From contig JBHLKY010000010.1 of assembly GCA_048886185.1 (NCBI GenBank), positions 1 to 18,425 of the forward strand: a DNA stretch of 18,425 nucleotides, in the 5' to 3' direction. This DNA is from Candidatus Hermodarchaeota archaeon (lineage in GTDB: Archaea > Asgardarchaeota > Heimdallarchaeia > Hodarchaeales > Hodarchaeaceae). The notes under the pieces were generated by a model, which did not search any database, was not told the origin of the DNA, and was given only the letters and a program-made list of their open reading frames with translations. Below, one piece after another: positions 1 to 18,425 of the stretch. Both the position numbers and the translations under genes were made by a program. Positions within the stretch are counted from its first letter, which is position 1. The number at the start of each line of letters is the position of its first letter.

Positions 1-3000
1 TCTGCTTGGGTCAACCTAGTGACCATTGGAGCGGGGAACACTTCCAAGGGGGAGACCTGGCGGTTTGAGATTCGGGTGTATGATGGGGAAAATTATTCTG
101 CTTTGACCCCCCTCAATCCCCCTGTGGTGATTCTTAATTCCATACCAATCACGAGTAATGTGGAACTTAATCCTATGACTCCTGTCACCACAGATGGTCT
201 TATGGTGACTTGGGATTATACAGATGACGATAATGATCCTGAAGGGACACCTTTAATTAAATGGTATTTGGAAAATATGCATCAACCTGCTTACGATGGA
301 ATAAGCATATTACCAGCTAGTGCAACAACGAAAGGGGATAATTGGCATGTTGGTATTCAGGTGTTTGATGGAACGGCCTATTCAGAAGAAGTAAATTCCT
401 CTCAGGTTATTATTCAAAATACCCCTCCTGAGGTAAGTAATTTAGCCCTTACTGCTGCTCCCAAGACGACAACTAATCTTGTGGCGAGTTGGAGTGCTGC
501 TGATAATGATACAGGGGATTCCCTAACCTTTAATGTCACCTGGTATCTTGAGGGGGTGGTGAACTGTAGCTGGCTAACATCCGCCACTAGTGCGATACTA
601 GCTGCAGGGAATACCACCAAAGGTGATCGCTGGTCGTTTTCCATTCAGGCGTATGATGGGGAGGCATATTCTAGTGTTATCTCCCTCGGGTATAATCGGA
701 CTATTCTCAACACTGCTCCAGTGGTAACAAACCTTACACTTACCTCCACGCCGACGACTATGGATCCTTTAATGGCTACCTTTGATTATTCCGATGCAGA
801 TCTTGCAGATAATGCAAGTCTCATCTTTAATATCACCTGGTATCGAAATGGGTTAGAGCAAAGCGCTCTCGCCAATACCACCAGTATTGGGCCAGGAAAC
901 ACCACGAAATCCCAGTTCTGGTGGTTCACTGTTCAAGCCTATGACGGAGAAAGCTTCTCCTTGAAGCTTGAGTCGGTTCATGTGCAGATTCTCAATACTG
1001 CTCCTGAGGTTAGCAATGTTGTGATTACTCCGCTGAGTCCCTTGACCACCATGGTTCTCAGTGCCAGTTGGGATGAAGTGGATGCGGATGGTGATAGTCT
1101 AACCTACACCATTCGGTGGTATATCGTGGGAGTGGGATTGGAAGCTGCTTATAATGATTTACCGACTGTTCCTGCCAGTGCGACCTCCAAAGGCCAGACC
1201 TGGTACTACAACCTTACCGCCTTTGATGGGACCGCTTATTCCCCAGAAATAAGTTCCTCTCAGGTTATCATTCAAAACTCTTCTCCCGAGCTCGATTCCC
1301 TCGTGGTTACAACTAATCCGACCACGCTGGATGACCTGATTGCCAGTTGGGCTGCCACGGATAATGATACTGGAGACTCCCTAACCTTTAATGTTACCTG
1401 GTATCTGAATGGGGCCATAAATTGCAGCTGGTCAACTGCTGTTAATACTGCAACTTTGAGTACTGGGAATACAACTAAGAATCAGCTCTGGAATGTGACC
1501 GTGCGGGCATATGATGGAACATCTTATTCCAACACTATTACTTTAACAATGAATATCACTATCCTCAATTCTAAACCTACCGTAGAAAATCCTTCTTTCA
1601 ATAACACCTCTCCTGATGTAGGGGACGATTTTCAGATTACTTACACCTTTGTGGATGCGGATGCTGGAGATGTTGAAGATTCAGGGAAGATAATTGTCTA
1701 TTGGTTTATCAACTGGAAGTATAATGCGACTTTTCAGAATCAGACTACGATTTATGCTGCGAATACCACTGCCACTGAGGTGTGGTATTACATTCTCAGG
1801 GTGTTTGATGGCGAAGCTTATAGTGATAATGTCACCTCGGAACAGGGGGTCTATATTGGGGGTGGAGGTACTAACGTTCGTCCGATAGCTATCGATTTAA
1901 CATTAACTCCTGCTTCTCCTCATACGCATGAGGCGCTCATTGCGAATTATACTTTCTCTGATGGGGATCTTGACCCCCAAGTTGCGTATGAAATTCGTTG
2001 GTATAAGAATTCTGGTACGGGCTTCCAGCTCCAGTCTCAGTATAATAATTTGTTTGTGGTTCCGGCCAGTGCCACCTCCAAGGATCAAGAGTGGAATTTT
2101 ACGGTGAAAGTGTTTGATGGTATTCAATGGAGTGAGCTCAATGTTTCTACCACCATTACTATTGCAAATACAAACCCTGAGGTTAACACCGCTGAAATTA
2201 CCACGGATCCTCAAACAACTGATGATCTGGTAGCTAGTTGGATGTCCAGCGATAATGATAGCGATAGTTTAACTTTTATTCTTACCTGGTATGTCAATGG
2301 GATTGAAAATGTCACGTTTGCGAATAAGACGGTGATTGAAGCCATGAACACTAAAAAAGGGGAGGAGTGGTATTTCACTGTCCAAGCGTATGATGGGGAA
2401 GGATTCTCTAGTATTATTTCACTAACTGCAAATGTCACCATACTCAATACAGCCCCCTTGGCAAGTAATCTGAATATAACAGCTAGTCCCTATACTTTTG
2501 ACGATTTGGTTGCAGACTGGAACTATTTTGACATTGATAATGATCCCAGAAATGATGGGCTAGCTCGGATTTGTTGGTTCAAGAATGGGTTGAATCAAAC
2601 CACCTTAGTTAATCAGAAAGTTGTTGGGGCGGGTAACACCTCCAAGAATCAGGTTTGGTGGTTTACAGTCCGTGTATTCGACGGAGAAGACTATTCTGGG
2701 CTTTATGAGTCAGCTCATATACAAGTCTTGAATAGTATTCCCGTGGTAGGAAATTTGGAAATTAGGATTTCAAACCCCAAGACGACAGATGAGTTAGAGG
2801 CCCAATGGGATGCTGTTGATAATGATAGCGACATTCTAAGCTACACCATCAAATGGTACAGAAATGCTGTCTATCAGCCAGCTTGGGATAATGAGATCAC
2901 AATTCCTGCCAGTGCCACCTCGAGGGGGGAAACCTGGTATTATACTTTGAAAGCGTTTGATGGAAATGATTATTCCTCAGAAGAGATCCTTAGTCCTGGT

Positions 3001-6000
3001 GTCCTCATTCTCAATACTGTTCCTGTGGTTGATAACTTAATACTAAGTATGGATCCTCAAACAACTGATGATCTGGTGGCTAGTTGGGTTGCCACTGATA
3101 ATGATACTAGTGATACATTAATCTTCAATATCACTTGGTATCTAGATGGGAATGTGAATTGTAGTTGGTTTACATCAACGAGTAGTGCGACATTGGACGC
3201 TGGGAACACCACTAAAGGGGAGGAGTGGTATTTTACTGTTCAAGCGTACGATGGAGAAGGGTTCTCCAGTGTGATATCACTCGCTTTAAATGTCACTATT
3301 TTGAATAGCGCCCCGACAGCGAGTAATTTAACGATTACGACCAATCCCACTACACTTGACGATCTAGTTGTAGAGTGGGATTATTTCGACATTGATAACG
3401 ATCCCCGAGATGATGCATTGGCTCGGGTTTGTTGGTTCAAGAATGGGTTGAATCAAACCACCTTAGTTAATCAGAAAATTGTTGGGGCGGGTAATACCTC
3501 CAAGAATCAGGTCTGGTGGTTCACCCTCCGTGTTTTTGACGGGGAGAACTATTCTCTTGGTATCTACGAGTCAGCTCACATTTCTATTCAGAACTCTCTA
3601 CCCTATAATTCCTCCACTCTGCCCCTTCCCGTGAATCCTACCAAAGCGAATGGCTTAGTGTTGACTCTGTCTACACTGCTTGCTGTGCTCTCGGACCCTG
3701 ATCCGAGTGATGATATTGAAGTTGTCAGGATTCGCTGGTATAAAGAAGGTGTGCTGCAGGGAACGTTAAATGACTCATTAATCGTCCCTGGAACCCGATT
3801 AACCAAAGGGGAGAGGTGGAATTATTCGATTGTGCCTTTCGATGGGAGTGGCTATGGGGCAGTGTGTATATCCGCGGAGATAGTTATCTTAAACTCTCGG
3901 CCGACCATCATTAACACTTATTTCACTGAACTAGCTGTTACTACCATTAACAACCTCGTGATCAGCTATCAAGCGGAGGATGCGGACGGGGATCCTATTG
4001 TTATCTCGGGGGTACGCTGGTATCGGTATGATGCGGGGATTCCTGGGTGGGTGTATAATGCCACTTATGATGATTATGTGACTCTTCCTGCTATGGCTAC
4101 TACCAAAGGAGAGAGCTGGAAATATGAGCTTGAGGTCTCTGATGGGACCGAGTCATCTTTATGGAGAGAGGCTGCGAAAGAGGCGGATATCATTAATAGC
4201 TACCCTCGCGTTGATCCCTTCAGTATCACGCTGACAGGGGGCATGACCACCTCTGATCCTCTGCAGGTGAGTTATGCCTGGTATGACGATGATCCTGGGG
4301 ATAGCAATACCCAGACGATCATTACCTGGGAGAACAGTGGGGACTATCTCGTCGATACCTATAGCACGAGTTTGTCGGCGGATGAGACCACGGCGGGTGA
4401 GCGCTGGTGGGTGACGATCACTCCCTATGATGGTGAGGATTATGGGGATTCCATCAACAGTAAGCGTTATGGCATAAGTATCATCATTGGTAACACTCCT
4501 CCCAGTCTTCTCCCAGATGACATTGTGATCAACGGGGAATTTAATGGCACCGAATACCAAGGGACGAGTTTTGGTACCGTCTTCAATCTCAATCTTCACT
4601 ATACGGCATTTGATCTTGATGGGGCTCAAGGGGTTCCAGCATATGGGTTATCTCTCGTTGATGGGTTTGCGGTAGGATCCGAGTATCGGTGGTATCGCAA
4701 TCGTTCGGGGAGTGTAACACTTGTTTCCGCGTTGAACAATGAGATTATTGTTTCGTCCTATTATACTCAGAAAGGGGATGGTTGGTGGGTTCAGGTGCGT
4801 CCTCGAGACTTTTACGGTGATTTTGGAGCCCCTCAAAATTCTACTCAAATTACTATTGGGAATACCGCGCCTCAAATAATTGGATTACACTGGGTACGAC
4901 TCACTTATTATACAACCAATGATTTGTCGTTTGACTATATATTCTATGATTATGATACCAAGGATACCCAACGGGGAGTCTTTATCCGCTGGTATCGGAA
5001 TGGGACTCATTTACCAGGATTCGATAACAATACAGCGATTGCCTCTCAATTCACGAAAAAAGGGGAAGTATGGTATGCGAATCTGAGTGTGTTTGATGGC
5101 GAATCATACAGTGTGTGGTATTACTTACTTAATATCACTGTCCAGAATTCTGCCCCAATTGCAACAGGTATTCTGTTAATCCCAGTTTTCCCCAATACCA
5201 CTCAACCTCTGATGGCAACTTGGATCTTTAATGACGTTGATAATGATTCTGAAAACCAAGCTGCCGCCCTCATTCAATGGTACCGCAATGGGATCCGTGT
5301 GGACAACCTCACGAATAGCCAAACGGTCTCTTCTACTCTGACCAATCGGGGGGAAAGCTGGTACTTCATGGTGCGAGTCACTGATGGGTATAATTACTCC
5401 CTCACCATTTATAAGTCAAATACCATTACAATTATTAACTCGGCGCCAACTGCGGTCGACCTGCAGATCAACAACGGAGATGAGATTAATACCACTCATG
5501 ATCTGGTGCTAAGTTGGAATTTCTCTGATCCCGACAGCCTTGATATTCAGGATCCCGACTCTGTGTTAATCCTCTGGTATTTGAATGGGATCGAACAACC
5601 TATGTTCAGAAATCAATCGATAATTTTCGCGATTAATACTACGAAAAACCAACAATGGATGGTGGCAATCAAGGTCTGCGACAATGGCGGGTTATGGAGT
5701 GAGTTCTTGAATTCATCCCTGGTGGTGATCCTGAACTCTCGGCCCGAGATTATTATTCATGAGAGCGCCCATCCTGACTTTATTGTTGAGGATGAAGCAT
5801 TTGAAATTAATAGCAGCTTTTTCAGCTATTCCGATGCGGATGGAGATGAAGCTCAATCTGTGATCAGATGGTATTGTAATGGGGAGTTGATGTTCCAAAA
5901 CCTCTGGCGTCTCTCAGCTACTGACACCGTTCCTGGTGATGTCTGGAATTACACCATTCAGCCATTCGACGGGACTGACTTTGGGGAGGAACGTTCCTCA

Positions 6001-7431
6001 CCAGTCATCTTCATTGAGAGTCGGCCTGTGATTCATAGTTTTGTGGCGACTGCCCTCCCCGACACTGAGGGGCACTATGAGGTGGAGATCAATGTCACGG
6101 ACTCTCGGAATGAGATTCTTCGCGTAGAATTTTGCTTAGCTCTCAACACCACCACTGAACTCCCTCTTTTTGTGATCACCTCTCCCAAGGCTCCGGAGTC
6201 ATCTCTTTGGCTTCTAGATTATACCCTCGACAGTTACTCCTATCTTGAGACCCCAACCCATGTCACGGTGACTGTGGTGACTGCAGTCGTCTATCCTAGT
6301 GTCTCTGAAATCCACTTAAGCCAGATGTTTAACTTTACACTCGAGGATAAAGCACCTCCGCGGGTTCTCAATGCCTATTTTGAGAGGGATGATGAGCTCA
6401 ATCCCACCAACCTCACTTTCTATGCGGAGGTGCAGGACTTTGGGTCAGGGATCGCTGAGGTCATTCTCTCCTATTGTTTCCAAGCGAGTGAGGGACTCAA
6501 TCAGACAGGCGGAAAGGGTGCCACTTTCCTTCAAGACGATCTGGAATGGCTAGAGCTGCCTATGACGATTCAAGCTACCAATGAGAGCGGGAATTTCATC
6601 TTGTATGTGGTGACGGTGGAGTTTGTCCAAGCACCCTACAGTCTTGCCATTATCTATCGGGTCTCGACTGAGGATGTGGCGGGGAATAGCAATCCCGTGG
6701 CCTTTGACATCCGTGACTATCCTGAACGACTTGACGCTGAACAAATCATCTATAATCCTCCAGGTCTGCCAGAGTGGGTTCTCCTCGTGGCTGGGCTTGC
6801 AGTTTTCGTCATCTTCATTGGGTCTATAGTTTATGTGAAATTCATCCGTAAACCCGAACTGGTCGGTTTGGATAAAGAATTGGTTATGGCCAAGGTCTCT
6901 GACATCCCTGATGCAGAGGTGATGGCCTCACTGGATGCTCATACCATTGGTGTGATTGTTAGCTTTTTCGACCAGAGACACGGCCCGATTCCGATTATCA
7001 TCATCCCTGAGATTCTGAAAGATAACTTTAATAAGCTGGTGGAACTCTCGGATCGCTCTTTCAGTGGCACTGGCTTCAGTGATGACTTTACTGTGGAAAT
7101 TCCCTCCAGTTATGACTTTGTGTTATCCCAAGGTATTCGTACTAGTGTGATGTCTTTTGGCTTTGCCCTAGAGCGGCCCGAAGCTAGAGGAGGCCAAGAG
7201 AACCTTACCTGTAACATTGTCATCCATCAAGATCTCTTTCCATTAGTTCAGTCTTTCCAAAAAGAGATTCAACAAAAAGTCCACACTCTCCACATGAGAA
7301 TGGATAAAAATCCTTCTGAGAAAGACAAGATCCGCTTACAAGTCTTTGAGCTCAGGAAATTAGTATCTAATATTATATTATCTTATGCGAGTATTTATGG
7401 TACCACTGAACTGATAGAAGAGGAAGGCTAA
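1..7431 (+). CDS. Giant single-pass surface glycoprotein (5'-truncated): about 20 tandem Ig/cadherin-like beta-sandwich repeats, TM helix, cytoplasmic uDENN/longin-like domain
   Basis: Frame is open from base 1 (SAWVNLVTIG...) and starts mid-repeat, so GTG19 is internal. Repeats of about 98 aa follow the pattern N-x-x-P...DxD(x)xD...WY(x)NG...T.KG..W...(F/Y)DG..S and carry many N-x-S/T sequons. Hydrophobic helix WVLLVAGLAVFVIFIGSIVYV (6775-6837) is followed by KFIRK (positive-inside). The tail has VIVSFFDQRHGPIP and SVMSFGFALERPEARGGQENLTCNIVI. Confidence 0.9.
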   Translation, partial: SAWVNLVTIGAGNTSKGETWRFEIRVYDGENYSALTPLNPPVVILNSIPITSNVELNPMTPVTTDGLMVTWDYTDDDNDPEGTPLIKWYLENMHQPAYDGISILPASATTKGDNWHVGIQVFDGTAYSEEVNSSQVIIQNTPPEVSNLALTAAPKTTTNLVASWSAADNDTGDSLTFNVTWYLEGVVNCSWLTSATSAILAAGNTTKGDRWSFSIQAYDGEAYSSVISLGYNRTILNTAPVVTNLTLTSTPTTMDPLMATFDYSDADLADNASLIFNITWYRNGLEQSALANTTSIGPGNTTKSQFWWFTVQAYDGESFSLKLESVHVQILNTAPEVSNVVITPLSPLTTMVLSASWDEVDADGDSLTYTIRWYIVGVGLEAAYNDLPTVPASATSKGQTWYYNLTAFDGTAYSPEISSSQVIIQNSSPELDSLVVTTNPTTLDDLIASWAATDNDTGDSLTFNVTWYLNGAINCSWSTAVNTATLSTGNTTKNQLWNVTVRAYDGTSYSNTITLTMNITILNSKPTVENPSFNNTSPDVGDDFQITYTFVDADAGDVEDSGKIIVYWFINWKYNATFQNQTTIYAANTTATEVWYYILRVFDGEAYSDNVTSEQGVYIGGGGTNVRPIAIDLTLTPASPHTHEALIANYTFSDGDLDPQVAYEIRWYKNSGTGFQLQSQYNNLFVVPASATSKDQEWNFTVKVFDGIQWSELNVSTTITIANTNPEVNTAEITTDPQTTDDLVASWMSSDNDSDSLTFILTWYVNGIENVTFANKTVIEAMNTKKGEEWYFTVQAYDGEGFSSIISLTANVTILNTAPLASNLNITASPYTFDDLVADWNYFDIDNDPRNDGLARICWFKNGLNQTTLVNQKVVGAGNTSKNQVWWFTVRVFDGEDYSGLYESAHIQVLNSIPVVGNLEIRISNPKTTDELEAQWDAVDNDSDILSYTIKWYRNAVYQPAWDNEITIPASATSRGETWYYTLKAFDGNDYSSEEILSPGVLILNTVPVVDNLILSMDPQTTDDLVASWVATDNDTSDTLIFNITWYLDGNVNCSWFTSTSSATLDAGNTTKGEEWYFTVQAYDGEGFSSVISLALNVTILNSAPTASNLTITTNPTTLDDLVVEWDYFDIDNDPRDDALARVCWFKNGLNQTTLVNQKIVGAGNTSKNQVWWFTLRVFDGENYSLGIYESAHISIQNSLPYNSSTLPLPVNPTKANGLVLTLSTLLAVLSDPDPSDDIEVVRIRWYKEGVLQGTLNDSLIVPGTRLTKGERWNYSIVPFDGSGYGAVCISAEIVILNSRPTIINTYFTELAVTTINNLVISYQAEDADGDPIVISGVRWYRYDAGIPGWVYNATYDDYVTLPAMATTKGESWKYELEVSDGTESSLWREAAKEADIINSYPRVDPFSITLTGGMTTSDPLQVSYAWYDDDPGDSNTQTIITWENSGDYLVDTYSTSLSADETTAGERWWVTITPYDGEDYGDSINSKRYGISIIIGNTPPSLLPDDIVINGEFNGTEYQGTSFGTVFNLNLHYTAFDLDGAQGVPAYGLSLVDGFAVGSEYRWYRNRSGSVTLVSALNNEIIVSSYYTQKGDGWWVQVRPRDFYGDFGAPQNSTQITIGNTAPQIIGLHWVRLTYYTTNDLSFDYIFYDYDTKDTQRGVFIRWYRNGTHLPGFDNNTAIASQFTKKGEVWYANLSVFDGESYSVWYYLLNITVQNSAPIATGILLIPVFPNTTQPLMATWIFNDVDNDSENQAAALIQWYRNGIRVDNLTNSQTVSSTLTNRGESWYFMVRVTDGYNYSLTIYKSNTITIINSAPTAVDLQINNGDEINTTHDLVLSWNFSDPDSLDIQDPDSVLILWYLNGIEQPMFRNQSIIFAINTTKNQQWMVAIKVCDNGGLWSEFLNSSLVVILNSRPEIIIHESAHPDFIVEDEAFEINSSFFSYSDADGDEAQSVIRWYCNGELMFQNLWRLSATDTVPGDVWNYTIQPFDGTDFGEERSSPVIFIESRPVIHSFVATALPDTEGHYEVEINVTDSRNEILRVEFCLALNTTTELPLFVITSPKAPESSLWLLDYTLDSYSYLETPTHVTVTVVTAVVYPSVSEIHLSQMFNFTLEDKAPPRVLNAYFERDDELNPTNLTFYAEVQDFGSGIAEVILSYCFQASEGLNQTGGKGATFLQDDLEWLELPMTIQATNESGNFILYVVTVEFVQAPYSLAIIYRVSTEDVAGNSNPVAFDIRDYPERLDAEQIIYNPPGLPEWVLLVAGLAVFVIFIGSIVYVKFIRKPELVGLDKELVMAKVSDIPDAEVMASLDAHTIGVIVSFFDQRHGPIPIIIIPEILKDNFNKLVELSDRSFSGTGFSDDFTVEIPSSYDFVLSQGIRTSVMSFGFALERPEARGGQENLTCNIVIHQDLFPLVQSFQKEIQQKVHTLHMRMDKNPSEKDKIRLQVFELRKLVSNIILSYASIYGTTELIEEEG
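2570..2654 (+). repeat. 85-bp near-identical direct repeat, copy 1 (copy 2 at 3428-3512)
   Basis: 2570-2619 equals 3428-3477 exactly (50 bp). Identity is 83/85 over the extended block. The offset of 858 bp is 286 codons, or three repeat units. Confidence 0.95.
3428..3512 (+). repeat. 85-bp near-identical direct repeat, copy 2
   Basis: Matches 2570-2654 with two substitutions. Confidence 0.95.
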
Positions 7432-7454
7432 AGGTTATTTATGATAAGTATCAT
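7430..7454 (+). promoter_or_regulatory. Putative BRE/TATA (aaagg-TTATTTAT) overlapped by the 14-bp palindrome ATGATA-AG-TATCAT
   Basis: TATA-like box at 7435-7442 after a purine run. Perfect 6-bp inverted repeat at 7441-7454. Lies upstream of the phosphoesterase gene. Confidence 0.35.
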
Positions 7455-7522
7455 TGAATAGGCAAGTAGAATACTTCCAGTTTTTCTCAAAGATTATTTG
7501 TCAGAAAGTATTGGTGTTTGGT

Positions 7523-8254
7523 GTGTTTTCATTAGGAATTATTTCAGACATTCACAGTAATATTGAAGCACTTAAGGCAGTTTTTGCAGATATGAAGACT
7601 TTTTTCCCTGAAATTAAGGAGATTTACTGCATCGGGGATCTAGTTGGTTATGGTCCTGACCCTAAGGAATGTATTGAGCTTGTATTTAACCATGGTTTAG
7701 TTACAAGGGTAGTTAAAGGTAATCATGATCATTATGTTGATCAGACAGTCACTCCTCCACAAATAAATTATTTGGCAGAAGCCGCAATAAATTATCAGAT
7801 TAATAATATCCCCCTAGAACTCCGCTGGGAATTGGCTCAATTGCCTCAATTTGTTACCATTAAACATTTGAATTTTAGCTCAGAGATAACTCTTGTTCAT
7901 GGTTCTCCACAATATCCCCTTAACACTTATATTTATCCTGATACACCTAAACAAGAAAATTTATTTAACTATATGAGCAATACAAATGTCGATATTCTTA
8001 TTCTTGGACATACACACATCCCATTTGTAAGAAAAAGAAAAATCGATCAAAATAAAGAGCTATTGATGCTTAATCCAGGAGCTGTTGGTCAACCTCGTGA
8101 TGATGACCCAAGAGCTTCTTACGCAGTTGTTGATATCGAGAATATGGAAGCAGAAATTAGACGAGTAGAATATGATATTGACTCTGTAGCAAACCGAATA
8201 ATTTCAGCAAGTTTACCCGAATCATTAGCTACTCGTTTGTTCAAAGGAAAATAA
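7523..8254 (+). CDS. Calcineurin-like metallophosphoesterase (Metallophos_2 / MJ0912-like family)
   Basis: Complete metal-binding motif set: SDIHSN, GDLVGYG, GNHD, VHGSP, GHTH, plus NPGAVGQPRD. The start was moved from TTG7454 to GTG7523 because GGTG sits at 7513-7516 and family members begin a few residues before the DxH motif. Confidence 0.93.
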   Translation: MFSLGIISDIHSNIEALKAVFADMKTFFPEIKEIYCIGDLVGYGPDPKECIELVFNHGLVTRVVKGNHDHYVDQTVTPPQINYLAEAAINYQINNIPLELRWELAQLPQFVTIKHLNFSSEITLVHGSPQYPLNTYIYPDTPKQENLFNYMSNTNVDILILGHTHIPFVRKRKIDQNKELLMLNPGAVGQPRDDDPRASYAVVDIENMEAEIRRVEYDIDSVANRIISASLPESLATRLFKGK

Positions 8255-8422
8255 TCTGAGTAGTATATTAATAGATTGTTGATATTCTCTCTTGGAATGA
8301 TAATAAATCTTATAAATAATCTCCATATCAATTGAAGTTAAAAATCATTTAGCTGATATTAATAAAGTATGAAGAAATATAAACATATGCTGTTGAAGAG
8401 AATAGTTTAAAGGAAACTAGAA

Positions 8423-8437
8423 TAAAAGGTTTATACA
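8423..8437 (+). promoter_or_regulatory. Putative archaeal BRE + TATA box (taaaagg-TTTATAca)
   Basis: Purine-rich BRE-like run directly before TTTATA (8430-8435) in the AT-rich intergenic region upstream of ATG8561. Confidence 0.4.
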
Positions 8438-8560
8438 ACTAGAATATTTTAAAAGACTATTATCTTAATATAGATCATCATCTTATTACTTCAATCAGAT
8501 TCTACATCTAGAAAACATCTTAAGATAAAAAGGTTCTCGTATTAACTAAGATGAAGAAAA

Positions 8561-9496
8561 ATGTCACAATTTGTCACAGAAGAAGTTGAGGATCAAGTTC
8601 GTAGTTCTCGAATCGCTAAGCATGTTGTTATGCGATCCATCTTAAAGGAACACATGAAAGATGCAGACGAGAGCAGTTTGAATAATCTTTTGATGAGAAT
8701 ATACCAATTATTTTATGATTCTTCAATGGTTGATGCGTTATTCTCGGATATCCAAGATAGAGAAAAGCAAAAGCAAGAGCTTCAAGAAATGGATCTTGAA
8801 GATATTGCTAGTATGGCTTTTGGAGAAGTGGCTGGAAAAGCAGGAACAGCAGAATCAGACTTCACTTCACTATTAGAGGCTGATAGTGCCACTTTTGAAA
8901 GTATGGTAGCCATCTCGGAAACTATACCTTACGAAGAAGTGTATAACGTACTGAAAAAAGCCAATATTGACGTTATTATTGATTTTTTTTCAGCACTTCA
9001 AGGATCAACTTCAAGTCTCTGGGAGACAACCATTGAATTTACCGAGGTTGATAAAAAGCACATCATGGATGTTTTTTCGCTATTTGTTGAAAAACAAATT
9101 GAAGGTGTATCTTTGGATGAGAGAATTCTTGGTAGCGATTTGGGGTCTTCTGTGCTTAATATTGAAGTGGCGAATAAACCTTTTTCCATTTTCATTTATA
9201 CTCCTGCTAAATGGCTAGATAAAGGACAAATGCATCGCTTATCCCTAGGGCTTATGATTCAAGATGAATGGGCAAAATATGTCTCGATTATGTCTACACA
9301 CATATCCCAAAAGCTTAATGAGATCACAAAGTCAATTTTGGGAACTGTAGGTGAAGATTTATCTAATATTCCATTTCGTCTAGTTGATCTGACAATTCGT
9401 AAAAGGTTAAAAACTCAGATAAAAGGATTAGCTGAATATGTTGCACGATGTTCTCTAGCTTTAGAACAAATTCAATCTTCAACTCATGATCTTTAA
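8561..9496 (+). CDS. Hypothetical protein: acidic helical N-terminus plus a probable divergent uDENN/longin-like C-terminal domain (aa ~135-305)
   Basis: Clean 311-aa ORF. The C-terminal half aligns by eye, in order, to the giant protein's tail: NIDVIIDFFSALQGST vs TIGVIVSFFDQRHGPI; FSIFIYTPAKWLDKGQMHRLSLGLMIQDEW vs MSFGFALERPEARGGQENLTCNIVIHQDL; VSIMSTHISQKLNEI vs VQSFQKEIQQKVHTL. Confidence 0.7.
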   Translation: MSQFVTEEVEDQVRSSRIAKHVVMRSILKEHMKDADESSLNNLLMRIYQLFYDSSMVDALFSDIQDREKQKQELQEMDLEDIASMAFGEVAGKAGTAESDFTSLLEADSATFESMVAISETIPYEEVYNVLKKANIDVIIDFFSALQGSTSSLWETTIEFTEVDKKHIMDVFSLFVEKQIEGVSLDERILGSDLGSSVLNIEVANKPFSIFIYTPAKWLDKGQMHRLSLGLMIQDEWAKYVSIMSTHISQKLNEITKSILGTVGEDLSNIPFRLVDLTIRKRLKTQIKGLAEYVARCSLALEQIQSSTHDL

Positions 9497-9515
9497 TCAC
9501 GAATTCAGAATATTT

Positions 9516-9530
9516 GAAAAGTTATATAAA
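9516..9530 (+). promoter_or_regulatory. Putative archaeal BRE + TATA box (gaaaag-TTATATAAA)
   Basis: Near-consensus BRE/TATA with the box starting 37 nt before ATG9559, consistent with a short-leader transcript for the 1141-aa gene and the tubulin-family gene. Confidence 0.55.
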
Positions 9531-9558
9531 TGTCTGGTTTGACGGGAAATGATTATTA

Positions 9559-12500
9559 ATGTCTTCAGGTAACTTAAACTTAATTTCAGAAATTCTTACA
9601 AAACTTCATCGGCTTATCTCAAAACCTGTTTGCGCACCAGAACTTACCAAGTACTCCAAACTTGTTCAACAATATTCCCAGCTGACAACAGAAATTGATA
9701 GCGCAGGTAGACTTGCAAAAAGGGGATTAAAAAAGCAGCAGGAACAGCTTCAATCAGATATGTCAAAATCTGAAGAAGTTTGCATGCAATGCATCTTTGA
9801 TGCTTTAGTTAGAGATCTAAAACCTATTCTTGAAAATCAAACCCAAGCTCTGTCTGCAGTTGCACCTCAAGCTGCAAGCTTGTTACGAGATATTAGGTTT
9901 CCACTAACTTCAGAAATAAGAGCAGTAATAACCTTTATTGAAGATGTAGAGAAAGTACAAGCCAACACAACAATCCAAACAAAAAATCTTTGCAAAGGTC
10001 TGCTCAATGATAATCAATCCAAGATCAACAATTACAAAAATCTCATTTCTTTAAATGAGAGGTCATTTCCACAAACAAAAAACTTAACTGAGGAAGCACT
10101 TAATTCTCTTTCAGTTTCAGATCTATTGAAATCATATTCTACTCTTAAAGAAGAGGAAAAATACATTAATCAACAACTAGCTACTTCAACTGACACTGTT
10201 CAGCAAAAACTTTTGCAATCAGTTCACGAACTTAGTTATTCTATACAAGAGGGAGCTAAAAGAAATATCATTCCAAATATTGAGGTGTATCAAGAAGTTA
10301 ATGAACTATCGTCCCAAATTGAGCAAGCTAAAACAATTGATGAGCTAAATCAACTAAATACTAAAGTTACACAATACACCGCTAAATATAGTGCGGCTAT
10401 AAAATCAGAGATAGCACGAGTAAGAACAACTGGAAATAATCTGATTACACAAATCCGTGGTCTTTTCCCAACTCTTTCTGACAAATGGATGCCCTCCCCT
10501 CCTGATGCGTTACCTTCAAAAGCATCCATAACTGCCTTAACGAGCTATTCTGATGATTTAAAAAAATGGGAGAAAAGTATTCTTAATGTAATAAGGAAAA
10601 TTTGCTCTGTTGAGGAGTTGAAGCAAGTTACTGAAGCTTCCCTTCAGGAGGGGCTCAGTATCCCGAATACTCTCATAGCTAATGCTACGGAAGTTGCTAA
10701 TCAAGTCCAGAAAGAAACTATTACAATTGAAGAAGCCTTCAAAAGACTAGAGAATTTTCACCTTTATTATACTGAGTTTCTTAATATCCTACGCGATAAT
10801 ATTTCCAACAATTTAAGCTTAGATGTTACTGACTCTGACTCAAGTGCGTTAATCTCGCTCAAACCTCCTATCGTTAATATCCAATCAGATAGTCCTTCAG
10901 AGCTAATAAGCTATATTCGGGCTGTTAATATTTGGAAAAACAAGTTGGTTAATGTTTTACAAGAGACCAGACACGATATAAATGATACTATAGCAACTGT
11001 CAATCAATTAGAAAGAAAAGGGATTAACAGTTTTCCTCCTAATTTTCAGGCTGAACTCACAGCTCTTTATGAAAAAATGGCATTGGAAACTGAAGTACAT
11101 ACTCTTTTACTGTACCGTCGATCATATGACCGCTTATATAAACAATTTGTGACATTAACAGCTGCTTATATCAAAGACTTCTTGAAAAATGTCACTGTGA
11201 TTCAATTGCTCGAATCAGAATCAAATATTTCTCGTCCTCCTTTTGTTGAAGATGCAGGAGAATTAGATCTCTCTGAACTACTTAATAGAATTGAATCTGT
11301 TGAGGAATGGAAACGAAAAGCTCTTTCTTTCCTCAAGAATAAAATTGAAGGATTAAGTTTTCCACTAATACCTGGGGAAGTCCCAGTTGATCTAAGGAAA
11401 GAAAAAAGCACTCTATTAACTCAATTGACAGGAACTGCAGCTACTCGTAATTTTATCTCAACAATTCAAAGTTACTTCAAATTCATGAAAACAATGTCTT
11501 CTTCTAAGAACTTAATGATCGAGGAGACATTGAAACAAATTGAAATATCCGAGAAAATCGATCAATCCTCCATTCAATACTTTAAATCAGTAATTGGCCA
11601 AGCCCCTATTTTTGAGATCCCTAAAGACATTGAAGCTTTGGATTATTCTGAGCTCTTAGAATTGTGGTTCCGTTTAAATACGTATAATAGAAAGAAAACT
11701 GAACTTGTTCAGCTTAAATGTCGTGAACTTCTATCAGGTTGGTTGAAACAATATAAATCCCTACCAGATCATTATTTGAATATTTTTAATCCACTATTCT
11801 TGATAATTGAGCAAGCTTTGTCTGAGTTAAATCAGACCTTAGAGGCTGAGGAAACATTAAAGAAGTATGAATTCTTCTTAAATGGTGCAACCAGTAAAGC
11901 ACAAGAAGGCCTCGAGAAATTAAAAGCGTATTTCTATAATAAAGTGACCGTTAGTTTACCACGAATCACAGAAGTAATGGGAGAGGTTTCTCCAGAAATT
12001 CTTAAAGTCTATAATTTTTTAGAGGGTACAATTTCAACAAAAGATCAGACACTTGAATCAATACATCGATTAATTATTGAAACTATACATGACTACGAAT
12101 ATATTTTGTTAGCGAAGCTTATGGAGCTTTTAAGCATTTCAAGCAAAAATTTACTCATGCAGATAGCCGAACTTCAAAATTATGGAGTAAATCTCCAAAG
12201 GTTAGTGGGAGAACAAATCGAAGTTTTTACACAGTTAGTTCAAGCAGATTCTTCTGATATGATGTCTATAGAAATGCTTACTCAATCGTTTGTTGAGTTA
12301 GATAAGATATTAAAAAATGAGCAACTCCAAAAATCATTATTTGAGATTATTAATAAAAATAATGAAGTTGCCAGTAGAATATTGGACTTTATTCAAGTTT
12401 TAGGCTGGAAAAACACACAAACCTTATTAATGCCTCATGTTGTAGCAATAAAGCAGGCAAAAGGAGCAATAACCTTTTGGTCGTTTGATCTAATAGCAAA

Positions 12501-12984
12501 GTCCACTATTGAGGTTATAAAAAGATCAAAAGAATTAATTCATGCTATTAGATCATTAGAACAAGAGAATTATGAAGCATTCCTTTCTGAATTAGAAACT
12601 GATTCAGCGATATCTTATTATAATAGCATTCATGAAGTTTTTAAATTTAAATTGGAAGAATGCTCCAAAGAGATTTTTCCACTCAATGAATTATACGCTG
12701 CAAGAGAAAAAATGAAATCATCAGAAGATCTAATAGAAATAAATGATTTATTAACAACTGTTTCAAAATTAAAGACACAATGGAAGCAGGAATGGTTACC
12801 AGTGATTTCAAAATGGCACAGTGTTCTCTTTTTATTCATTAGTGATTATACACCAGCGATGAACCATGAAGATAAGATAACATACCTAGCAAATGCTAAA
12901 CGAGAAATTGAAGAAGCGTATAATCATCCACCGATGGTTCAATATCTATCCTCGGCTGTTGAGCTTTATATAACAAGTAGGTAA
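9559..12984 (+). CDS. Large all-alpha helical-repeat (rod-like) protein of unknown function
   Basis: 1141-aa ORF rich in L/E/K/Q/S, with no TM helix and no Walker motif. A recurring unit of Pro linker plus S(E/D)L(L/I)..Y...L..W has W337, W459, W584 and Y709 spaced 122-125 aa apart. Confidence 0.85.
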   Translation: MSSGNLNLISEILTKLHRLISKPVCAPELTKYSKLVQQYSQLTTEIDSAGRLAKRGLKKQQEQLQSDMSKSEEVCMQCIFDALVRDLKPILENQTQALSAVAPQAASLLRDIRFPLTSEIRAVITFIEDVEKVQANTTIQTKNLCKGLLNDNQSKINNYKNLISLNERSFPQTKNLTEEALNSLSVSDLLKSYSTLKEEEKYINQQLATSTDTVQQKLLQSVHELSYSIQEGAKRNIIPNIEVYQEVNELSSQIEQAKTIDELNQLNTKVTQYTAKYSAAIKSEIARVRTTGNNLITQIRGLFPTLSDKWMPSPPDALPSKASITALTSYSDDLKKWEKSILNVIRKICSVEELKQVTEASLQEGLSIPNTLIANATEVANQVQKETITIEEAFKRLENFHLYYTEFLNILRDNISNNLSLDVTDSDSSALISLKPPIVNIQSDSPSELISYIRAVNIWKNKLVNVLQETRHDINDTIATVNQLERKGINSFPPNFQAELTALYEKMALETEVHTLLLYRRSYDRLYKQFVTLTAAYIKDFLKNVTVIQLLESESNISRPPFVEDAGELDLSELLNRIESVEEWKRKALSFLKNKIEGLSFPLIPGEVPVDLRKEKSTLLTQLTGTAATRNFISTIQSYFKFMKTMSSSKNLMIEETLKQIEISEKIDQSSIQYFKSVIGQAPIFEIPKDIEALDYSELLELWFRLNTYNRKKTELVQLKCRELLSGWLKQYKSLPDHYLNIFNPLFLIIEQALSELNQTLEAEETLKKYEFFLNGATSKAQEGLEKLKAYFYNKVTVSLPRITEVMGEVSPEILKVYNFLEGTISTKDQTLESIHRLIIETIHDYEYILLAKLMELLSISSKNLLMQIAELQNYGVNLQRLVGEQIEVFTQLVQADSSDMMSIEMLTQSFVELDKILKNEQLQKSLFEIINKNNEVASRILDFIQVLGWKNTQTLLMPHVVAIKQAKGAITFWSFDLIAKSTIEVIKRSKELIHAIRSLEQENYEAFLSELETDSAISYYNSIHEVFKFKLEECSKEIFPLNELYAAREKMKSSEDLIEINDLLTTVSKLKTQWKQEWLPVISKWHSVLFLFISDYTPAMNHEDKITYLANAKREIEEAYNHPPMVQYLSSAVELYITSR

Positions 12985-12995
12985 GGGGTCTTATT

Positions 12996-14330
12996 ATGGC
13001 AAAAGCAAGTAGAGAAGCAGATGTTTTCATAATTGGTATGGGTGAATGTGGGTCAAATCTAGTGGGTTCCTATATCCAAAAAAGTAAGAAACAAACAGGA
13101 TCATCTCGTATTCGTGAATATCTCATAATGAACACCGATAAAACAGATCTTACTAAAACTCGTTCAGAGTATTCAATTCCTAATCAAAACACATTGATTT
13201 ATTCAGATGAGGAAATAGGTGTGGGAGGTAAGTTTAAAGAGGGGTATGATCTTGTTATGAAAAATCAGGATCTCATCCTTAACCAACTGAAAGGATTGGG
13301 ATATGAGGGAGTCTCTGGCTTCATAATTTTGACTAGTCTTGGTGGTGGTACTGGTTGTGGTGGTACTCCAGCGCTTGTAGAACTTCTTCATAAGCGATTT
13401 TCAGAAGAACGACGGATATTCATCTATGTATTTGGTGTTTTACCATTTGAAAATCAATCATCAGAGGCAATTAACTCCATTTGGTCATTGTCGACCTTGT
13501 TAAGAAATCAATTAGAACCAAACAAAGGGCCGAACTTAATCTTTTTATTGTCTAATAAAACTATGTTAAAAAGAGTAATGGGTTGGAGGGAAGGGCGTGC
13601 AAGTGCATTATTGGATCAATCCCTAGGAATTGATTCTGCTGACCTAGCTTCAGGTGAGGAGCAGCAACGAATGGAAACAGAGGTAGAATTTACTCAATTA
13701 GTAAATCCGTTAGCTTTACAAACAATAGAAGCAATTCTTTCTCCAAGCATTCAAGAACCAGGTAAGAAAGTCATGCCAACGACTGATTTAGCAGATTATT
13801 CAAGAAGACTAGATCCAGTTGTAGTTCCTTGTTATTTTGAAGATATGTACTTTCTACCTGAATATGGGAGGATAGAAAAACAAATGGCTCTGGCAGCAAG
13901 ATATGCTGTTAATCACTGTTCATTGACTGATATTGAAACAAAACCCATGGCAGGTTCTGTTTATTCCATTTTTACTGGAAACAGGGACATTGCTAAACTA
14001 GAGTATTCAGCTCATCTAAAAAAGATTCTCGCACCATATCTTGTAAAAGGTGGATCAATCCAACCGTCTTTTGTAGCTTATGACGATCCGAGTATAGAAA
14101 GGTCTTCTATTCTCTTACTTTTTGGTTTACCTCTTATCCCGGAATTACGTGATGTATATAATGACGCTACTAATTTGATAGCATATCATGATGACTCAAA
14201 ATCAACGATTAAACGCGGTTGGTTTGAAAGATCGAAGGGAGTGGGTCGGGATCAACTACAAATAGCAATGGATGATATTATGAATCTTTTTGGCAAGTAT
14301 ATGGTCATTAATGAGGCCAATAACCAGTAA
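12996..14330 (+). CDS. Divergent tubulin/FtsZ-superfamily GTPase
   Basis: T1 IGMGECGSNL; NTD; T3 GVGG; signature GFIILTSLGGGTGCGG (aa 108-123); VLPF; T6 LSN; H7 LVN; T7 TDLAD. SD-like GGGGT at 12985-12989; starts 11 bp after the upstream stop. Confidence 0.92.
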   Translation: MAKASREADVFIIGMGECGSNLVGSYIQKSKKQTGSSRIREYLIMNTDKTDLTKTRSEYSIPNQNTLIYSDEEIGVGGKFKEGYDLVMKNQDLILNQLKGLGYEGVSGFIILTSLGGGTGCGGTPALVELLHKRFSEERRIFIYVFGVLPFENQSSEAINSIWSLSTLLRNQLEPNKGPNLIFLLSNKTMLKRVMGWREGRASALLDQSLGIDSADLASGEEQQRMETEVEFTQLVNPLALQTIEAILSPSIQEPGKKVMPTTDLADYSRRLDPVVVPCYFEDMYFLPEYGRIEKQMALAARYAVNHCSLTDIETKPMAGSVYSIFTGNRDIAKLEYSAHLKKILAPYLVKGGSIQPSFVAYDDPSIERSSILLLFGLPLIPELRDVYNDATNLIAYHDDSKSTIKRGWFERSKGVGRDQLQIAMDDIMNLFGKYMVINEANNQ

Positions 14331-14377
14331 AAACTGATCTTATGTGAATATTCTTCCCTAATTGTAAGAACTTATAG

Positions 14378-16600
14378 TTATAATTTCTCTAAAAGTTCTA
14401 AGTAACTTCTTAGCTTTTCCGATGTCTCATCTTTTTGTTTTTCTTGAACAAGTTTTAATTCATGGGTGGGTTGGATTTCTTCTGATTTTGCTGGGATTAC
14501 TGCTTCTGTTGATTCGACATGGTTTTTTATAGCTGCATGAATAATGCGGCTAGCAAAATCAACTGCCCCTTCTGACTCGATGGGGATTTGCATTGCTTCT
14601 TTTAACAATTTTCTAATCTGAAAGATATTGATGGAATCTACGACATTCACCTGGCCAATGGGAAAACCTCGCTGGCTGAAATTTAATAGGATACCTCTCT
14701 TTCCCTTTCCTACTGTAAATGCAACTTTTTCACTATCAGGGATTAGAATGTAATTTCCTTCTACTTCAATTTCCATTGGAATAATGAAATCAATGGTTTC
14801 TGCTAGATATCCCTCCTCTTTGCGTACTTTCTTAGTTCTTACCTCAGAGGTGGAGCTTAGATCCTTTTCACGAATTTGTTGGATCGTCTCGTGAATCATT
14901 CTCGCAGCAAAGTTCATAGAGCCAATTCCATCCTCGAAAATACCCAAACCTGTCAAATTCATCTCATAGGCTAACAGGTAAAGGATTTCTTCACTTGAGA
15001 TCCTAGAAGAAACAATTGAACTACCAATAAGCTCTCGTTGGCCAGCAGGCCCTTGCAAATGAAGAGTTAAACGAGCATTTAACCCTTCTGGTTGAATTAT
15101 TTCTACTTTAAAGCCCATTCCATGAGTATCTGGTAAAGAAATAATACCCTCAACACTTTCAGTTTCAACTGGAATATCAATTTTTGTAAGTTCAGGATGT
15201 CCCTTTATTTTAATCTTTTTCTTCTTTTTTTCCTTCACTTCTGAGATTAAATATTTTTTGACTATGTCATTAATAGTCATTTCGGGTTTTTCAGTAATAT
15301 ATACAAGGCACTTGATAATATCTGTTTCCTTTAATTCCCCTTTTAGGTAAACATGAAATAATTCTAGCAATCTCTCTCGTGTTAATAGATTATATTTCTC
15401 CATGCCTTGTGATTTTTTAATAAAGGGTAAATATTTGAGGAGAACATCAGTGACGAGTGGTATTGGAATCCCTGAGGTAACTGCCATTTCAAATACATCA
15501 GAATACCCAGTATTGACAATTTCCATTGCCTCATTAGTTCCTATGCGGAAAAAGTCAACTAAATGGCTGATTTGTGGATTAATTTCTGTTGTTTCCTGAT
15601 TCAAGATTTGTTCTTCTTGAGTTTTGGGTGCAAATTGAGAGCTCACAGTTGGAATAGGTTTTTCCTCTGTCTGGACAGAATGAGAATGGATTTCTGTTTG
15701 TGAAGAAGGGGGTGTTTGTTCCATTATTGAGGATAAAAATGTTTCAGTAGAAGATTCTTCTGATGCAGCATTTCCAAGATATGCAGATCTTGGAGAAAAT
15801 TGAGTAGTGGTGCCATCTGCTGAAACCTCTGTTTTTACAGCTTGCCGTATCAAAAATTGTAATTTCTCTAATACTGCTGGATCACCAGCTATTTTGGGAG
15901 TGGAATATTCATGTTCTTGAACTGCTTCAACCTCAAGTCTTGGTTCTCGTATTGTCATACCTTTTTCATGATATTCTTCAATTTCACCGATTGTCCGAAA
16001 ATCAACAAACTCACTTTTTGCTATTTGGGGAATAGTAAGCTCAAAAATGCGTCCAAAACTATCTATAACCGTTTCTGGTTTGTAAATTGTTGTCCTAAAA
16101 AATCTAAGTTTATGAGGATATTCCAACTGAAATTGTTCTTTTAATTGTTCATGAATACTTTCATAGTTAGGTGAATCTCTTACTAAATCGTTTTTATGTA
16201 GGAAAACGAAGACTTCAGCGTTGGGAGAAAAAGTTGTGAGCTTTTCAAGACAGGCCGTAAAATATTGAATGGCATTATTTCTAGAAGTTTTATTTGCTAC
16301 ATCAATTAGAAAAATAAATGTTTTTACGCTACTGAATACAAATGGGCTAAATCCACTTAAGAAGCGTTTTAAAAATATCTTCTGTCCACCAAGATCTACG
16401 ATCGTAATCGGTGTATCATGGATCGTGAGTGACATCCTTTCATAATTGATTGTAGCTGAAAGACTGTCAACATCTTCTGTTTGCTGTTTGAGAAAGAAAA
16501 TTCTCTTGACTGCAGTCTTTCCAGCTTCACTTAAGCCAGCAATTAAGATTTTATAACCAAGTCGAGTGGTTATTTCAGATTCAGATACCCAATCAGACAT
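14378..16600 (-). CDS. RagA/Gtr1-like small GTPase (aa ~14-190) fused to a low-complexity linker, a helical domain and a tandem duplicated alpha/beta domain
   Basis: G1 GLSEAGKT, G2 SATINYE, G3 DLGGQ, Rag-type G4 LHKNDL and G5 RTTIY. FSPNAEVFVFLHKNDLV closely parallels RagA NSPDAKIFCLVHKMDLV (recalled). Confidence 0.9.
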   Translation of the reverse strand: MSDWVSESEITTRLGYKILIAGLSEAGKTAVKRIFFLKQQTEDVDSLSATINYERMSLTIHDTPITIVDLGGQKIFLKRFLSGFSPFVFSSVKTFIFLIDVANKTSRNNAIQYFTACLEKLTTFSPNAEVFVFLHKNDLVRDSPNYESIHEQLKEQFQLEYPHKLRFFRTTIYKPETVIDSFGRIFELTIPQIAKSEFVDFRTIGEIEEYHEKGMTIREPRLEVEAVQEHEYSTPKIAGDPAVLEKLQFLIRQAVKTEVSADGTTTQFSPRSAYLGNAASEESSTETFLSSIMEQTPPSSQTEIHSHSVQTEEKPIPTVSSQFAPKTQEEQILNQETTEINPQISHLVDFFRIGTNEAMEIVNTGYSDVFEMAVTSGIPIPLVTDVLLKYLPFIKKSQGMEKYNLLTRERLLELFHVYLKGELKETDIIKCLVYITEKPEMTINDIVKKYLISEVKEKKKKKIKIKGHPELTKIDIPVETESVEGIISLPDTHGMGFKVEIIQPEGLNARLTLHLQGPAGQRELIGSSIVSSRISSEEILYLLAYEMNLTGLGIFEDGIGSMNFAARMIHETIQQIREKDLSSTSEVRTKKVRKEEGYLAETIDFIIPMEIEVEGNYILIPDSEKVAFTVGKGKRGILLNFSQRGFPIGQVNVVDSINIFQIRKLLKEAMQIPIESEGAVDFASRIIHAAIKNHVESTEAVIPAKSEEIQPTHELKLVQEKQKDETSEKLRSYLELLEKL

Positions 16601-18030: not shown

Positions 18031-18033
18031 TCA

Positions 18034-18425
18034 TTGATTAAAAAATTGGGAATTGAAGACTATCCAAAAATTCAAGCCTTATGGGAATCAGCTGGTTTAT
18101 CTTGGAGAGCTGAAGGACGAGACCATCCTGATAGAATAAGAAGGCAAATTGAAAGCCAGAGTATTTTTCTCTTGGGAGAAGTGGAAAAAGAAGAATTACG
18201 TGGAGTAGTCCTTGTTTCACATGATTCTCGGAAAGGATGGTTAAATCGCTTAGCTGTTCATCCCCACTATCGCAATCAACAAATTGCTCAGCAGTTGATT
18301 AAAGCAGCAGAAGACCTACTGTATAATGAGAATGGTATTGAAGTTTTTTGTACACTGATATTTGATGACAATGTAGCAAGTACCTCATTGTTTGAGAAAG
18401 TTGGGTATGAGTCATGGTCCGAAGT
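18034..18425 (+). CDS. GNAT-family N-acetyltransferase (YpeA-like), 3'-truncated; absent from the ORF track
   Basis: Manual translation: MIKKLGIEDYPKIQALWESAGL...RGVVLVSHDSRKGWLNRLAVHPHYRNQQIAQQLIKAAE...NVASTSLFEKVGY. It has motif A (LAVHP..R...IA, with Gln in place of the usual Gly) and N..S..LF.K.GY, and runs off the window end. Confidence 0.9.
   Translation, partial: MIKKLGIEDYPKIQALWESAGLSWRAEGRDHPDRIRRQIESQSIFLLGEVEKEELRGVVLVSHDSRKGWLNRLAVHPHYRNQQIAQQLIKAAEDLLYNENGIEVFCTLIFDDNVASTSLFEKVGYESWSE

Follow-up and report, generated by a model that had tools for sequence, protein, structure and literature searches.

A FLCN/SMCR8-type longin domain with a candidate arginine finger on the membrane-anchored tail of a giant Asgard surface protein, and its gene pairing with Rag-like GTPases

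What does a giant surface protein of an Asgard archaeon carry on the inner side of its membrane anchor, and which partner would that part serve? The question is raised by the 18,425 bases at the start of contig C10 (JBHLKY010000010.1) in the 4.84-Mb, 96%-complete assembly GCA_048886185.1 of a Candidatus Hermodarchaeota archaeon, a stretch referred to here as the window. It opens with a giant gene, and we are confident that the tail of the encoded protein is a longin domain of the FLCN/SMCR8 type, located at the inner membrane face of a giant glycosylated surface protein. Throughout, G000 denotes the source genome and other G numbers the genomes of its genus; C stands for a contig and L for a locus. 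No stop interrupts frame 1 between base 1 and the stop codon at 7429-7431. Because the window begins at the contig start, this open reading frame (ORF) is open at its 5′ end, and the giant protein is therefore longer than the 2476 amino acids (aa) read here. A paralogue on contig C1 measures 4196 aa and is 86% identical over 2477 aa. The giant gene is divided as follows.

1..7431, forward strand: giant-gene ORF, open at its 5′ end
1..6774, forward strand: ectodomain-coding part, about 20 beta-rich repeats and then a non-repeat membrane-proximal region
6775..6837, forward strand: single transmembrane (TM) helix WVLLVAGLAVFVIFIGSIVYV, aa 2259-2279
6838..6885, forward strand: juxtamembrane linker KFIRKPELVGLDKELV, aa 2280-2295, kept among paralogues in the tail comparison
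6886..7428, forward strand: cytoplasmic FLCN/SMCR8-type longin domain, aa 2296-2476, 181 aa
6952..6993, forward strand: first motif string VIVSFFDQRHGPIP, aa 2318-2331
6982..6993, forward strand: GP motif G-P-I-P (G2328, P2329, P2331) in the beta1-beta2 turn
7144..7224, forward strand: SVMSFGF...NIVI, aa 2382-2408
7174..7203, forward strand: beta4-beta5 loop R-P-E-A-R-G-G-Q-E-N, with the candidate arginine finger R2396 (codon AGA, 7186-7188) and E2400

The ectodomain repeats are 95-100 aa long and follow the pattern W-Y/F-x-N-G ... D-G-x-x-Y/F-S. Pfam recognized only fn3 in this part, and weakly, and homologues carry LamG and DUF2341 domains at the same position. N-x-S/T sequons number 75 before the TM helix, compared to 32 expected from composition, and the 197-aa region after the helix contains one. 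The TM helix is preceded by an acidic stretch and followed by K-F-I-R-K, and by the positive-inside rule the C-terminus of the giant protein would be cytoplasmic.

The fold of the tail was modelled with AlphaFold2 from alignment A1, which comprises 66 homologous tails with identities down to 23% (adding 2295 to its positions gives protein numbering). The model reached a predicted local distance difference test (pLDDT) score of 94.9 and a predicted template modelling score of 0.90. Its elements are a helix (9-19), two strands (20-29 and 33-40), a helix (42-62), three strands (72-79, 85-96, and 104-114) and two final helices (115-141 and 146-171). This predicted succession, i.e., N-terminal helix, beta1, beta2, alpha1, beta3, beta4, beta5, alpha2, and alpha3, is the longin order. 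A fold search with the model returned the following solved structures, given with their Z scores.

8yqg_B, Lokiarchaeota longin: 14.0
8dhb_J, 6nzd_H, and 6ulg_L, FLCN: 13.2, 12.0, and 11.9
4zy8_A, Lst4: 12.0
6lt0_C, chain of the C9orf72-SMCR8-WDR41 entry: 11.7
9o5a_H, NPRL2: 11.6
3tw8_C, DENND1B: 9.2
VAMP7, Ykt6, TRAPP, and sedlin (several): 8 or less
GAF and LuxR-type (several): 6-7

In the ESM Atlas, the nearest clusters were Asgard longin-GTPase fusions and a Heimdall cluster partly annotated as Folliculin, followed by C9orf72, Avl9, FLCN/SMCR8, NPR2, and SMCR8.

Seven columns of A1 are invariant in 66 of 66 tails (G22, F28, G33, P36, R101, E105, and R157), among them G2328, P2331, R2396, and E2400 in protein numbering, and the first proline of the GP motif, P2329, is kept in at least 90% of the tails. 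In the model, G33-P34 occupies the beta1-beta2 turn between strands 20-29 and 33-40, and R101 (R2396) lies in loop 97-103, between beta4 and beta5 and ahead of strand 104-114. The same loop was then read in the chains deposited for two eukaryotic proteins. FLCN 156-179 runs FFIKDSLARGFQ..., giving A163-R164-G165, and SMCR8 138-161 runs HLTLYDLEARGF..., giving E145-A146-R147-G148. The window residues E2394-A2395-R2396-G2397 are therefore identical to the SMCR8 loop over four residues and have A-R-G in common with FLCN; in all three proteins, the arginine loop sits between two consecutive strands. The GP motif and the arginine finger have been reported to mark longins of the GTPase-activating protein (GAP) type, the GP motif being specific to them, and Asgard longins bearing the annotation "Folliculin/SMCR8 longin domain-containing" carry both (PMC12290439). 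Taken together, the sequence and its placement in the model suggest that R2396 is a candidate arginine finger in a GAP-type longin. An earlier note on this DNA, made from the letters alone, had proposed just such a tail, with its arginine in the beta4-beta5 loop as in FLCN R164 and SMCR8 R147. The high-confidence longin model, whose nearest solved relatives include FLCN, Lst4, C9orf72, and NPRL2, bears out the fold; the PDB sequences bear out the A-R-G context; and the arginine of the EARG string proved invariant across the homologues. The strings that the note quoted (TM helix, VIVSFFDQRHGPIP, SVMSFGF...NIVI, and the EARG arginine codon) were all recovered where it had placed them, and its R2390 is our R2396, having been counted from the GTG at base 19 rather than from base 1. 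It erred in putting the first motif right after the TM helix, as 38 residues, including a short helix, lie between the two.

A sequence bridge to FLCN was found beyond the fold. In a Pfam scan of the 66 tails, Folliculin (PF11704) was the sole family matched repeatedly, in 19 tails and always under threshold, with a best E value of 2e-4. Its curated gathering threshold is 23.3 bits, and a genome-wide PF11704 search of the source genome reached 19 bits for two divergent tails on contig C13 and 29 bits for one soluble protein.

G000 C6:93398-94711, reverse strand: soluble 437-aa FLCN-like protein, which passes Pfam Folliculin

Scanned directly, this protein scored 27.8 bits on Folliculin, above the cut-off of 23.3. 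Its translation shows a GP motif and P-E-A-R-G, and it aligns with the tail profile over the arginine-finger segment (hhalign E value of 3.6e-5, probability of 71%); phmmer of the same protein against the PDB retrieved nothing relevant. Homology of the tail to FLCN-type longins is thus well supported, because Folliculin matches recur across the family and because this intermediate carries P-E-A-R-G. The full folliculin/SMCR8 layout, a longin followed by a DENN domain, was not seen in the tail, since its model is longin only and the domain ends at the C-terminus; lacking a DENN module, the tail is not a folliculin orthologue. The 437-aa gene itself stands two genes away from a gene for a roadblock/LC7-like protein of 158 aa and has a 461-aa protein of no family encoded directly downstream.

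The anchored layout is not peculiar to the window. The source genome contains eight tails by protein search and nine by profile, all of which end very long open frames, and a HMMER search of 1.84 billion cluster representatives yielded 152 proteins that match the tail. In 156 of the 164 homologues with enough upstream sequence, a TM-like segment precedes the domain by no more than about 75 aa. Throughout the family, the longin domain is C-terminal, ending a median of 3 residues and at most 15 from the C-terminus; a TM-anchored, C-terminal longin is thus a family trait. The named homologues are all Asgard, from Hodarchaeales and from assemblies labelled Heimdall-, Thor-, Odin-, Hermod-, and Promethearchaeota. 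They are annotated only as "hypothetical" or "DUF2341 domain-containing", and the tail is therefore unrecognised by public annotation. The sequencing runs listed as containing window positions 6000-9000 were all DNA runs from sediments or estuaries, with no RNA run among them. The most divergent tails of the source genome stand in tandem: contig C13 (positions 1-14398; L007 and L008) holds three giant genes in a row, of 2227, 1563, and 1007 aa, and all three end in tails 27-33% identical to that of the window, the third detected only at an E value of 1.4e-9. This triple array recurs in another assembly (L018).

With which protein might such a tail work? The window encodes a candidate client on the opposite strand.

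14378..16600, reverse strand: 740-aa Rag/Gtr1-like GTPase (Gtr1_RagA, 8e-30), with its G domain at aa 1-200 and a long C-terminal extension

In the Atlas model of this protein, residues 3-689 align with a Hodarchaeota Rag protein of 334 aa, and because of this alignment the extension may have been inserted between the G domain and a roadblock-like domain at the C-terminus. Long Rag-like genes are present in 20 of the 21 genomes of the genus. Their positions were crossed with those of the tails across these genomes, whose kinship means that the resulting pairs are not independent. Twelve convergent pairs were found in nine genomes (G016:C4, G016:C11, G002:C49, G013:C48, G020:C78, G004:C168, G006:C28, G006:C235, G001:C4, G001:C50, G021:C30, and G017:C101), in which the tail-coding end and the 3′ end of the Rag gene are 4-98 nucleotides (nt) apart. 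Two further pairs are in tandem (G008:C28 and G012:C350), and two are divergent with room for a short Rag gene in between (G000:C9 and G018:C28). In G000:C9, the short gene was observed directly: it encodes 300 aa and ends 25 nt before the giant gene, with which it probably forms an operon. Loci in other assemblies extend the picture. At L016, the giant gene is followed after 23 nt by a convergent 738-aa Rag-like gene and, past that, by a 302-aa Rag gene; at L017, two Rag-like genes flank the giant gene, one of 703 aa 246 nt downstream and one of 302 aa upstream; and at L013, a 300-aa Rag gene follows the giant gene by 57 nt. The Rag paralogues found in tail pairs are only 45-60% identical to the Rag of the window, and the pairing has therefore outlived duplication and divergence. 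On the strength of this gene pairing, we consider it likely that the tail works with co-encoded Rag-like GTPases.

Some features of the Rag loci deserve mention on their own. The whole stretch G000:C9:85875-95471 (L053 and L006) consists of a 564-aa long Rag-like gene on the reverse strand, the 300-aa Gtr1/RagA gene on the forward strand, and a 2131-aa giant gene with a longin tail. At most of the loci L020-L047, the long Rag-like gene has a second, short one of about 30% identity 350-450 nt upstream of it in divergent orientation, an arrangement that recalls a RagA/RagC-type pair; no short Rag-like gene divergent to the long one is present in this window. What is left of the tail in G017:C101 (14866-15129) is interrupted by four in-frame stop codons and lies 4 nt from a long Rag-like gene that is intact; it looks like the relic of a decayed giant gene.

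Complex prediction was run for the tail (A1) and the G domain of the 740-aa Rag (A2, 24 rows) with GTP and Mg, along with three controls. The tail and the G domain scored 0.36, with 0.00 for the best of the three controls, which amounts to weak support: 58 of 80 solved complexes also attained the mark that they reached, as did 2 of 110 mismatched pairs, and the passes at 0.60 or under comprised only 7 of these 80 solved complexes and both mismatches. Contact agreement between runs was at least 78%, with a partner pLDDT of at least 88.

In the mechanism that we propose, a single-pass, N-glycosylated giant surface protein would hold a GAP-type longin about 40 residues from the inner membrane face. 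The tail would most likely dock the Rag-like GTPase or GTPases encoded beside such genes, here the 740-aa protein at 14378-16600, and would speed their GTP hydrolysis through the invariant Arg2396 of the E-A-R-G loop, with help from the GP turn next to it. Like the longin GAP complexes of eukaryotes, the tail probably works as a dimer of longins, and the giant ectodomain would place or modulate the GAP activity at the cell surface. We infer binding, catalysis, dimerisation, and coupling to outside events, and that the tail accelerates GTP hydrolysis by co-encoded Rag-like GTPases through R2396 is put forward tentatively, with a confidence that falls a little short of even. A bolder version, which we find rather doubtful, would make these proteins true single-pass receptors in which binding or contact at the ectodomain alters the oligomeric state or geometry of the tail and thereby switches off or recruits the co-encoded Rag-like GTPases at the plasma membrane. 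The eukaryotic Rag-FLCN/GATOR switch would then have begun as an Asgard cell-surface signalling device, and the signal might also feed the tubulin-family cytoskeleton encoded between the two genes.

Several observations weigh against a GAP acting on its Rag-like neighbour. Eukaryotic longin GAPs need a second longin plus DENN or other modules, and the tail has neither. Tail and Rag gene lie 6.9 kb apart in the window. Giant genes without a Rag neighbour occur at L012, L014, L015, and L018 and on contigs C1, C37, C18, and C13 of the source genome, where eight to nine tails stand against about 11 clear Rag-like genes with no one-to-one match established. The pass in the complex prediction may reflect likeness to known complexes rather than binding, because FLCN-Rag and GATOR1-Rag complexes have been solved. 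The window tail matched no Pfam family at an E value of 1 or less and fell below the PF11704 gathering threshold, and its searches against PDB sequences (phmmer and profile search) returned only noise, namely antibody light chains and designed helical bundles. Lastly, dimers of longin or roadblock domains act as general platforms on which GTPases dock, and mostly serve as guanine nucleotide exchange factors (GEFs) or scaffolds, not as GAPs (PMC10933270). This last point also favors a different role for the same partnership, less likely though worth keeping in view, in which the tail is a non-catalytic membrane platform that recruits Rag-like GTPases devoid of a lipid anchor, whether as an anchor of the Ragulator kind or as a site for a GEF or effector, and that uses its invariant Arg and Glu for binding or loop structure. 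The tail is indeed membrane tethered, as LAMTOR1 tethers Ragulator; it has none of the DENN and partner modules found in FLCN, SMCR8, and NPRL2; and the pairing of tail and Rag genes supports an interaction without pointing to any particular activity. However, the invariant positions are exactly the GP turn and the A-R-G loop, reported as specific to the GAP type (PMC12290439), and the fold search placed GAP-type longins ahead of DENN and TRAPP longins, which are of the GEF type.

The tail could also have nothing to do with GTPases and instead help giant surface proteins to dimerise or cluster, serve their sorting or turnover, or act as a cytoskeletal tether, for instance for the tubulin-family and helical proteins. 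The many family members without a GTPase neighbour agree with such a role, as do the tubulin-family and long helical protein genes directly downstream in the window and the deposition of the most similar solved Asgard longin (8yqg) as a dimer. We nonetheless regard it as improbable, since a mere tether needs no invariant FLCN-type catalytic motifs and since the genes from p311, a 311-aa protein, through the 1141-aa helical protein to the tubulin are found together in only four close genomes, whereas the Rag pairing spans many paralogue lineages. Scarcely credible is a generic alpha/beta sandwich (GAF-, PAS-, or roadblock-like) without homology to FLCN-type longins, whose motif matches would be coincidental. 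Sequence identity between the tail and solved longins is indeed just 9-16%, LOV/PAS and GAF chains appear lower in the fold-search lists, and the missing Pfam match would suit such a protein. Yet the GAF and LuxR-type matches score 4-6 Z units lower than the GAP-type longins, and neither the recurrent matches to the Folliculin hidden Markov model nor the P-E-A-R-G of an intermediate that passes the Pfam cut-off would be expected of a coincidence.

The tail can be set beside the systems that it resembles. FLCN with FNIP2 is the GAP for RagC/D (PDB 6NZD, 6ULG, and 8DHB), with Lst7-Lst4 as its yeast counterpart. The tail shares with FLCN the GP turn after beta1, the loop A2395-R2396-G2397 matching FLCN A163-R164-G165, and a genomic place beside Rag-family GTPases. 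Unlike FLCN, it has no DENN domain and no established FNIP-like partner, is only about 16% identical, stays under the Pfam Folliculin threshold, and is fused via a TM helix to a giant glycosylated ectodomain. NPRL2 of GATOR1, whose yeast homologue is Npr2, uses Arg78 as its finger for RagA/B; it differs from the window tail in acting as part of a soluble complex whose other two subunits are NPRL3 and DEPDC5. SMCR8, of the C9orf72-SMCR8-WDR41 Arf/Rab GAP (PDB 6LT0 and 7MGE), has the identical E-A-R-G and a GP motif, G68-P69 (PMC12290439), but is a soluble longin-DENN protein that forms a heterodimer with C9orf72, and for the window tail an Arf-like client is less likely than a Rag-like one. Also unlike the window tail, the 437-aa C6 protein, cytosolic and encoded beside a roadblock-like gene, stands with the soluble FLCN/SMCR8-type longins of Asgard archaea (PMC12290439, section 2.6), and the 8YQG longin belongs to a soluble Lokiarchaeota Roadblock-Longin fusion. 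The likeness to Ragulator (LAMTOR1-5) is one of function only, a membrane-fixed module of the longin/roadblock class associated with Rag-family GTPases; Ragulator consists of roadblock domains with a lipidated subunit and no arginine finger, whereas the tail has a TM anchor and a longin fold.

How much of this is new? The earlier note knew of no eukaryotic longin GAP with such an architecture. Asgard FLCN/SMCR8-type longins with the GP motif and the arginine finger had already been published (PMC12290439), which narrows the claim of novelty, and only the membrane-anchored giant-ectodomain architecture and the Rag gene pairing appear undescribed. Neither was found in the open literature searched, the membrane context of the 15 Asgard longins of PMC12290439 being unchecked. 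The link to the neighbouring Rag-like GTPase, which the note had also suggested, is supported by the conserved gene pairing. The convergent long-Rag pairing counts are new, as is the lineage-specific inserted block described below. Asgard small GTPases have been called hard to match with their regulators, with which they rarely share operons (PMC10933270). In the present case, the physical pairing of a particular Rag-like gene with an FLCN-type longin whose arginine-finger motif is intact has been kept in several paralogue lineages, and this provides defined protein pairs for expression and assay. Should the tail be a GAP, the logic by which Rags and longin GAPs serve nutrient signalling in eukaryotes would predate eukaryotes and would have worked at the plasma membrane, with wiring to the cell surface; we know of no eukaryotic longin GAP that is wired in this way.

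Between the tail and the Rag gene, the window carries a block of four genes.

7454-8254, forward strand: Metallophos phosphoesterase, first gene of the block
8561-9496, forward strand: p311, a 311-aa protein, second gene
8915..9481, forward strand: C-terminal half of p311 (aa 119-307), possible divergent longin-like domain
9559-12984, forward strand: 1141-aa helical protein, third gene
12996-14330, forward strand: tubulin/FtsZ-family GTPase, fourth gene

The arrangement from p311 to the tubulin between tail and Rag was found only in G000 and its three closest relatives, G003, G010, and G014; with p311 as the query, p311 was not found in G016 or G001. In L012, from a complete relative genome, a paralogous giant gene is followed by BtpA and GNAT genes without either the block or a Rag gene. 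The order BtpA and then GNAT acetyltransferase downstream of a giant gene occurs at 17200-18423 of the window and at L012:21818-23067, and its presence in both supports local synteny around the insertion. The block would accordingly be a lineage-specific insertion into an ancestrally adjacent pair of giant and Rag genes. The idea that the 10-kb stretch from the phosphoesterase to the Rag gene is one conserved system was rejected, as the inner block exists only in the four close relatives and L012 is without it.

The second gene of the block may itself be related to the tail. By hhalign, p311 (A3) matched the tail (A1) with a P value of 5e-4 and a probability of 31% over 163 columns that span the whole tail domain, and as a single sequence it matched with a P value of 0.002 and a probability of 13%. 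The alignment places Q-G-S where the tail has G-P and W-L-D-K-G-Q where it has E-A-R-G-G-Q. Pfam Longin_2 gave an E value of 0.12, an AlphaFold2 model from a 4-row alignment had a pLDDT of 32.8, and p311 had no usable match in the ESM Atlas. These alignments are suggestive only of a divergent longin-like domain, without the arginine or the GP motif, in the C-terminal half of p311. The third and fourth genes have a paralogous counterpart in the source genome, where a 1175-aa helical protein and a tubulin (G000:C6:79238-84170, reverse strand) are 23% and 55% identical to those of the window and lie about 9 kb from the soluble 437-aa FLCN-like gene; the window block thus looks as if it includes a duplicated helical-protein/tubulin pair.

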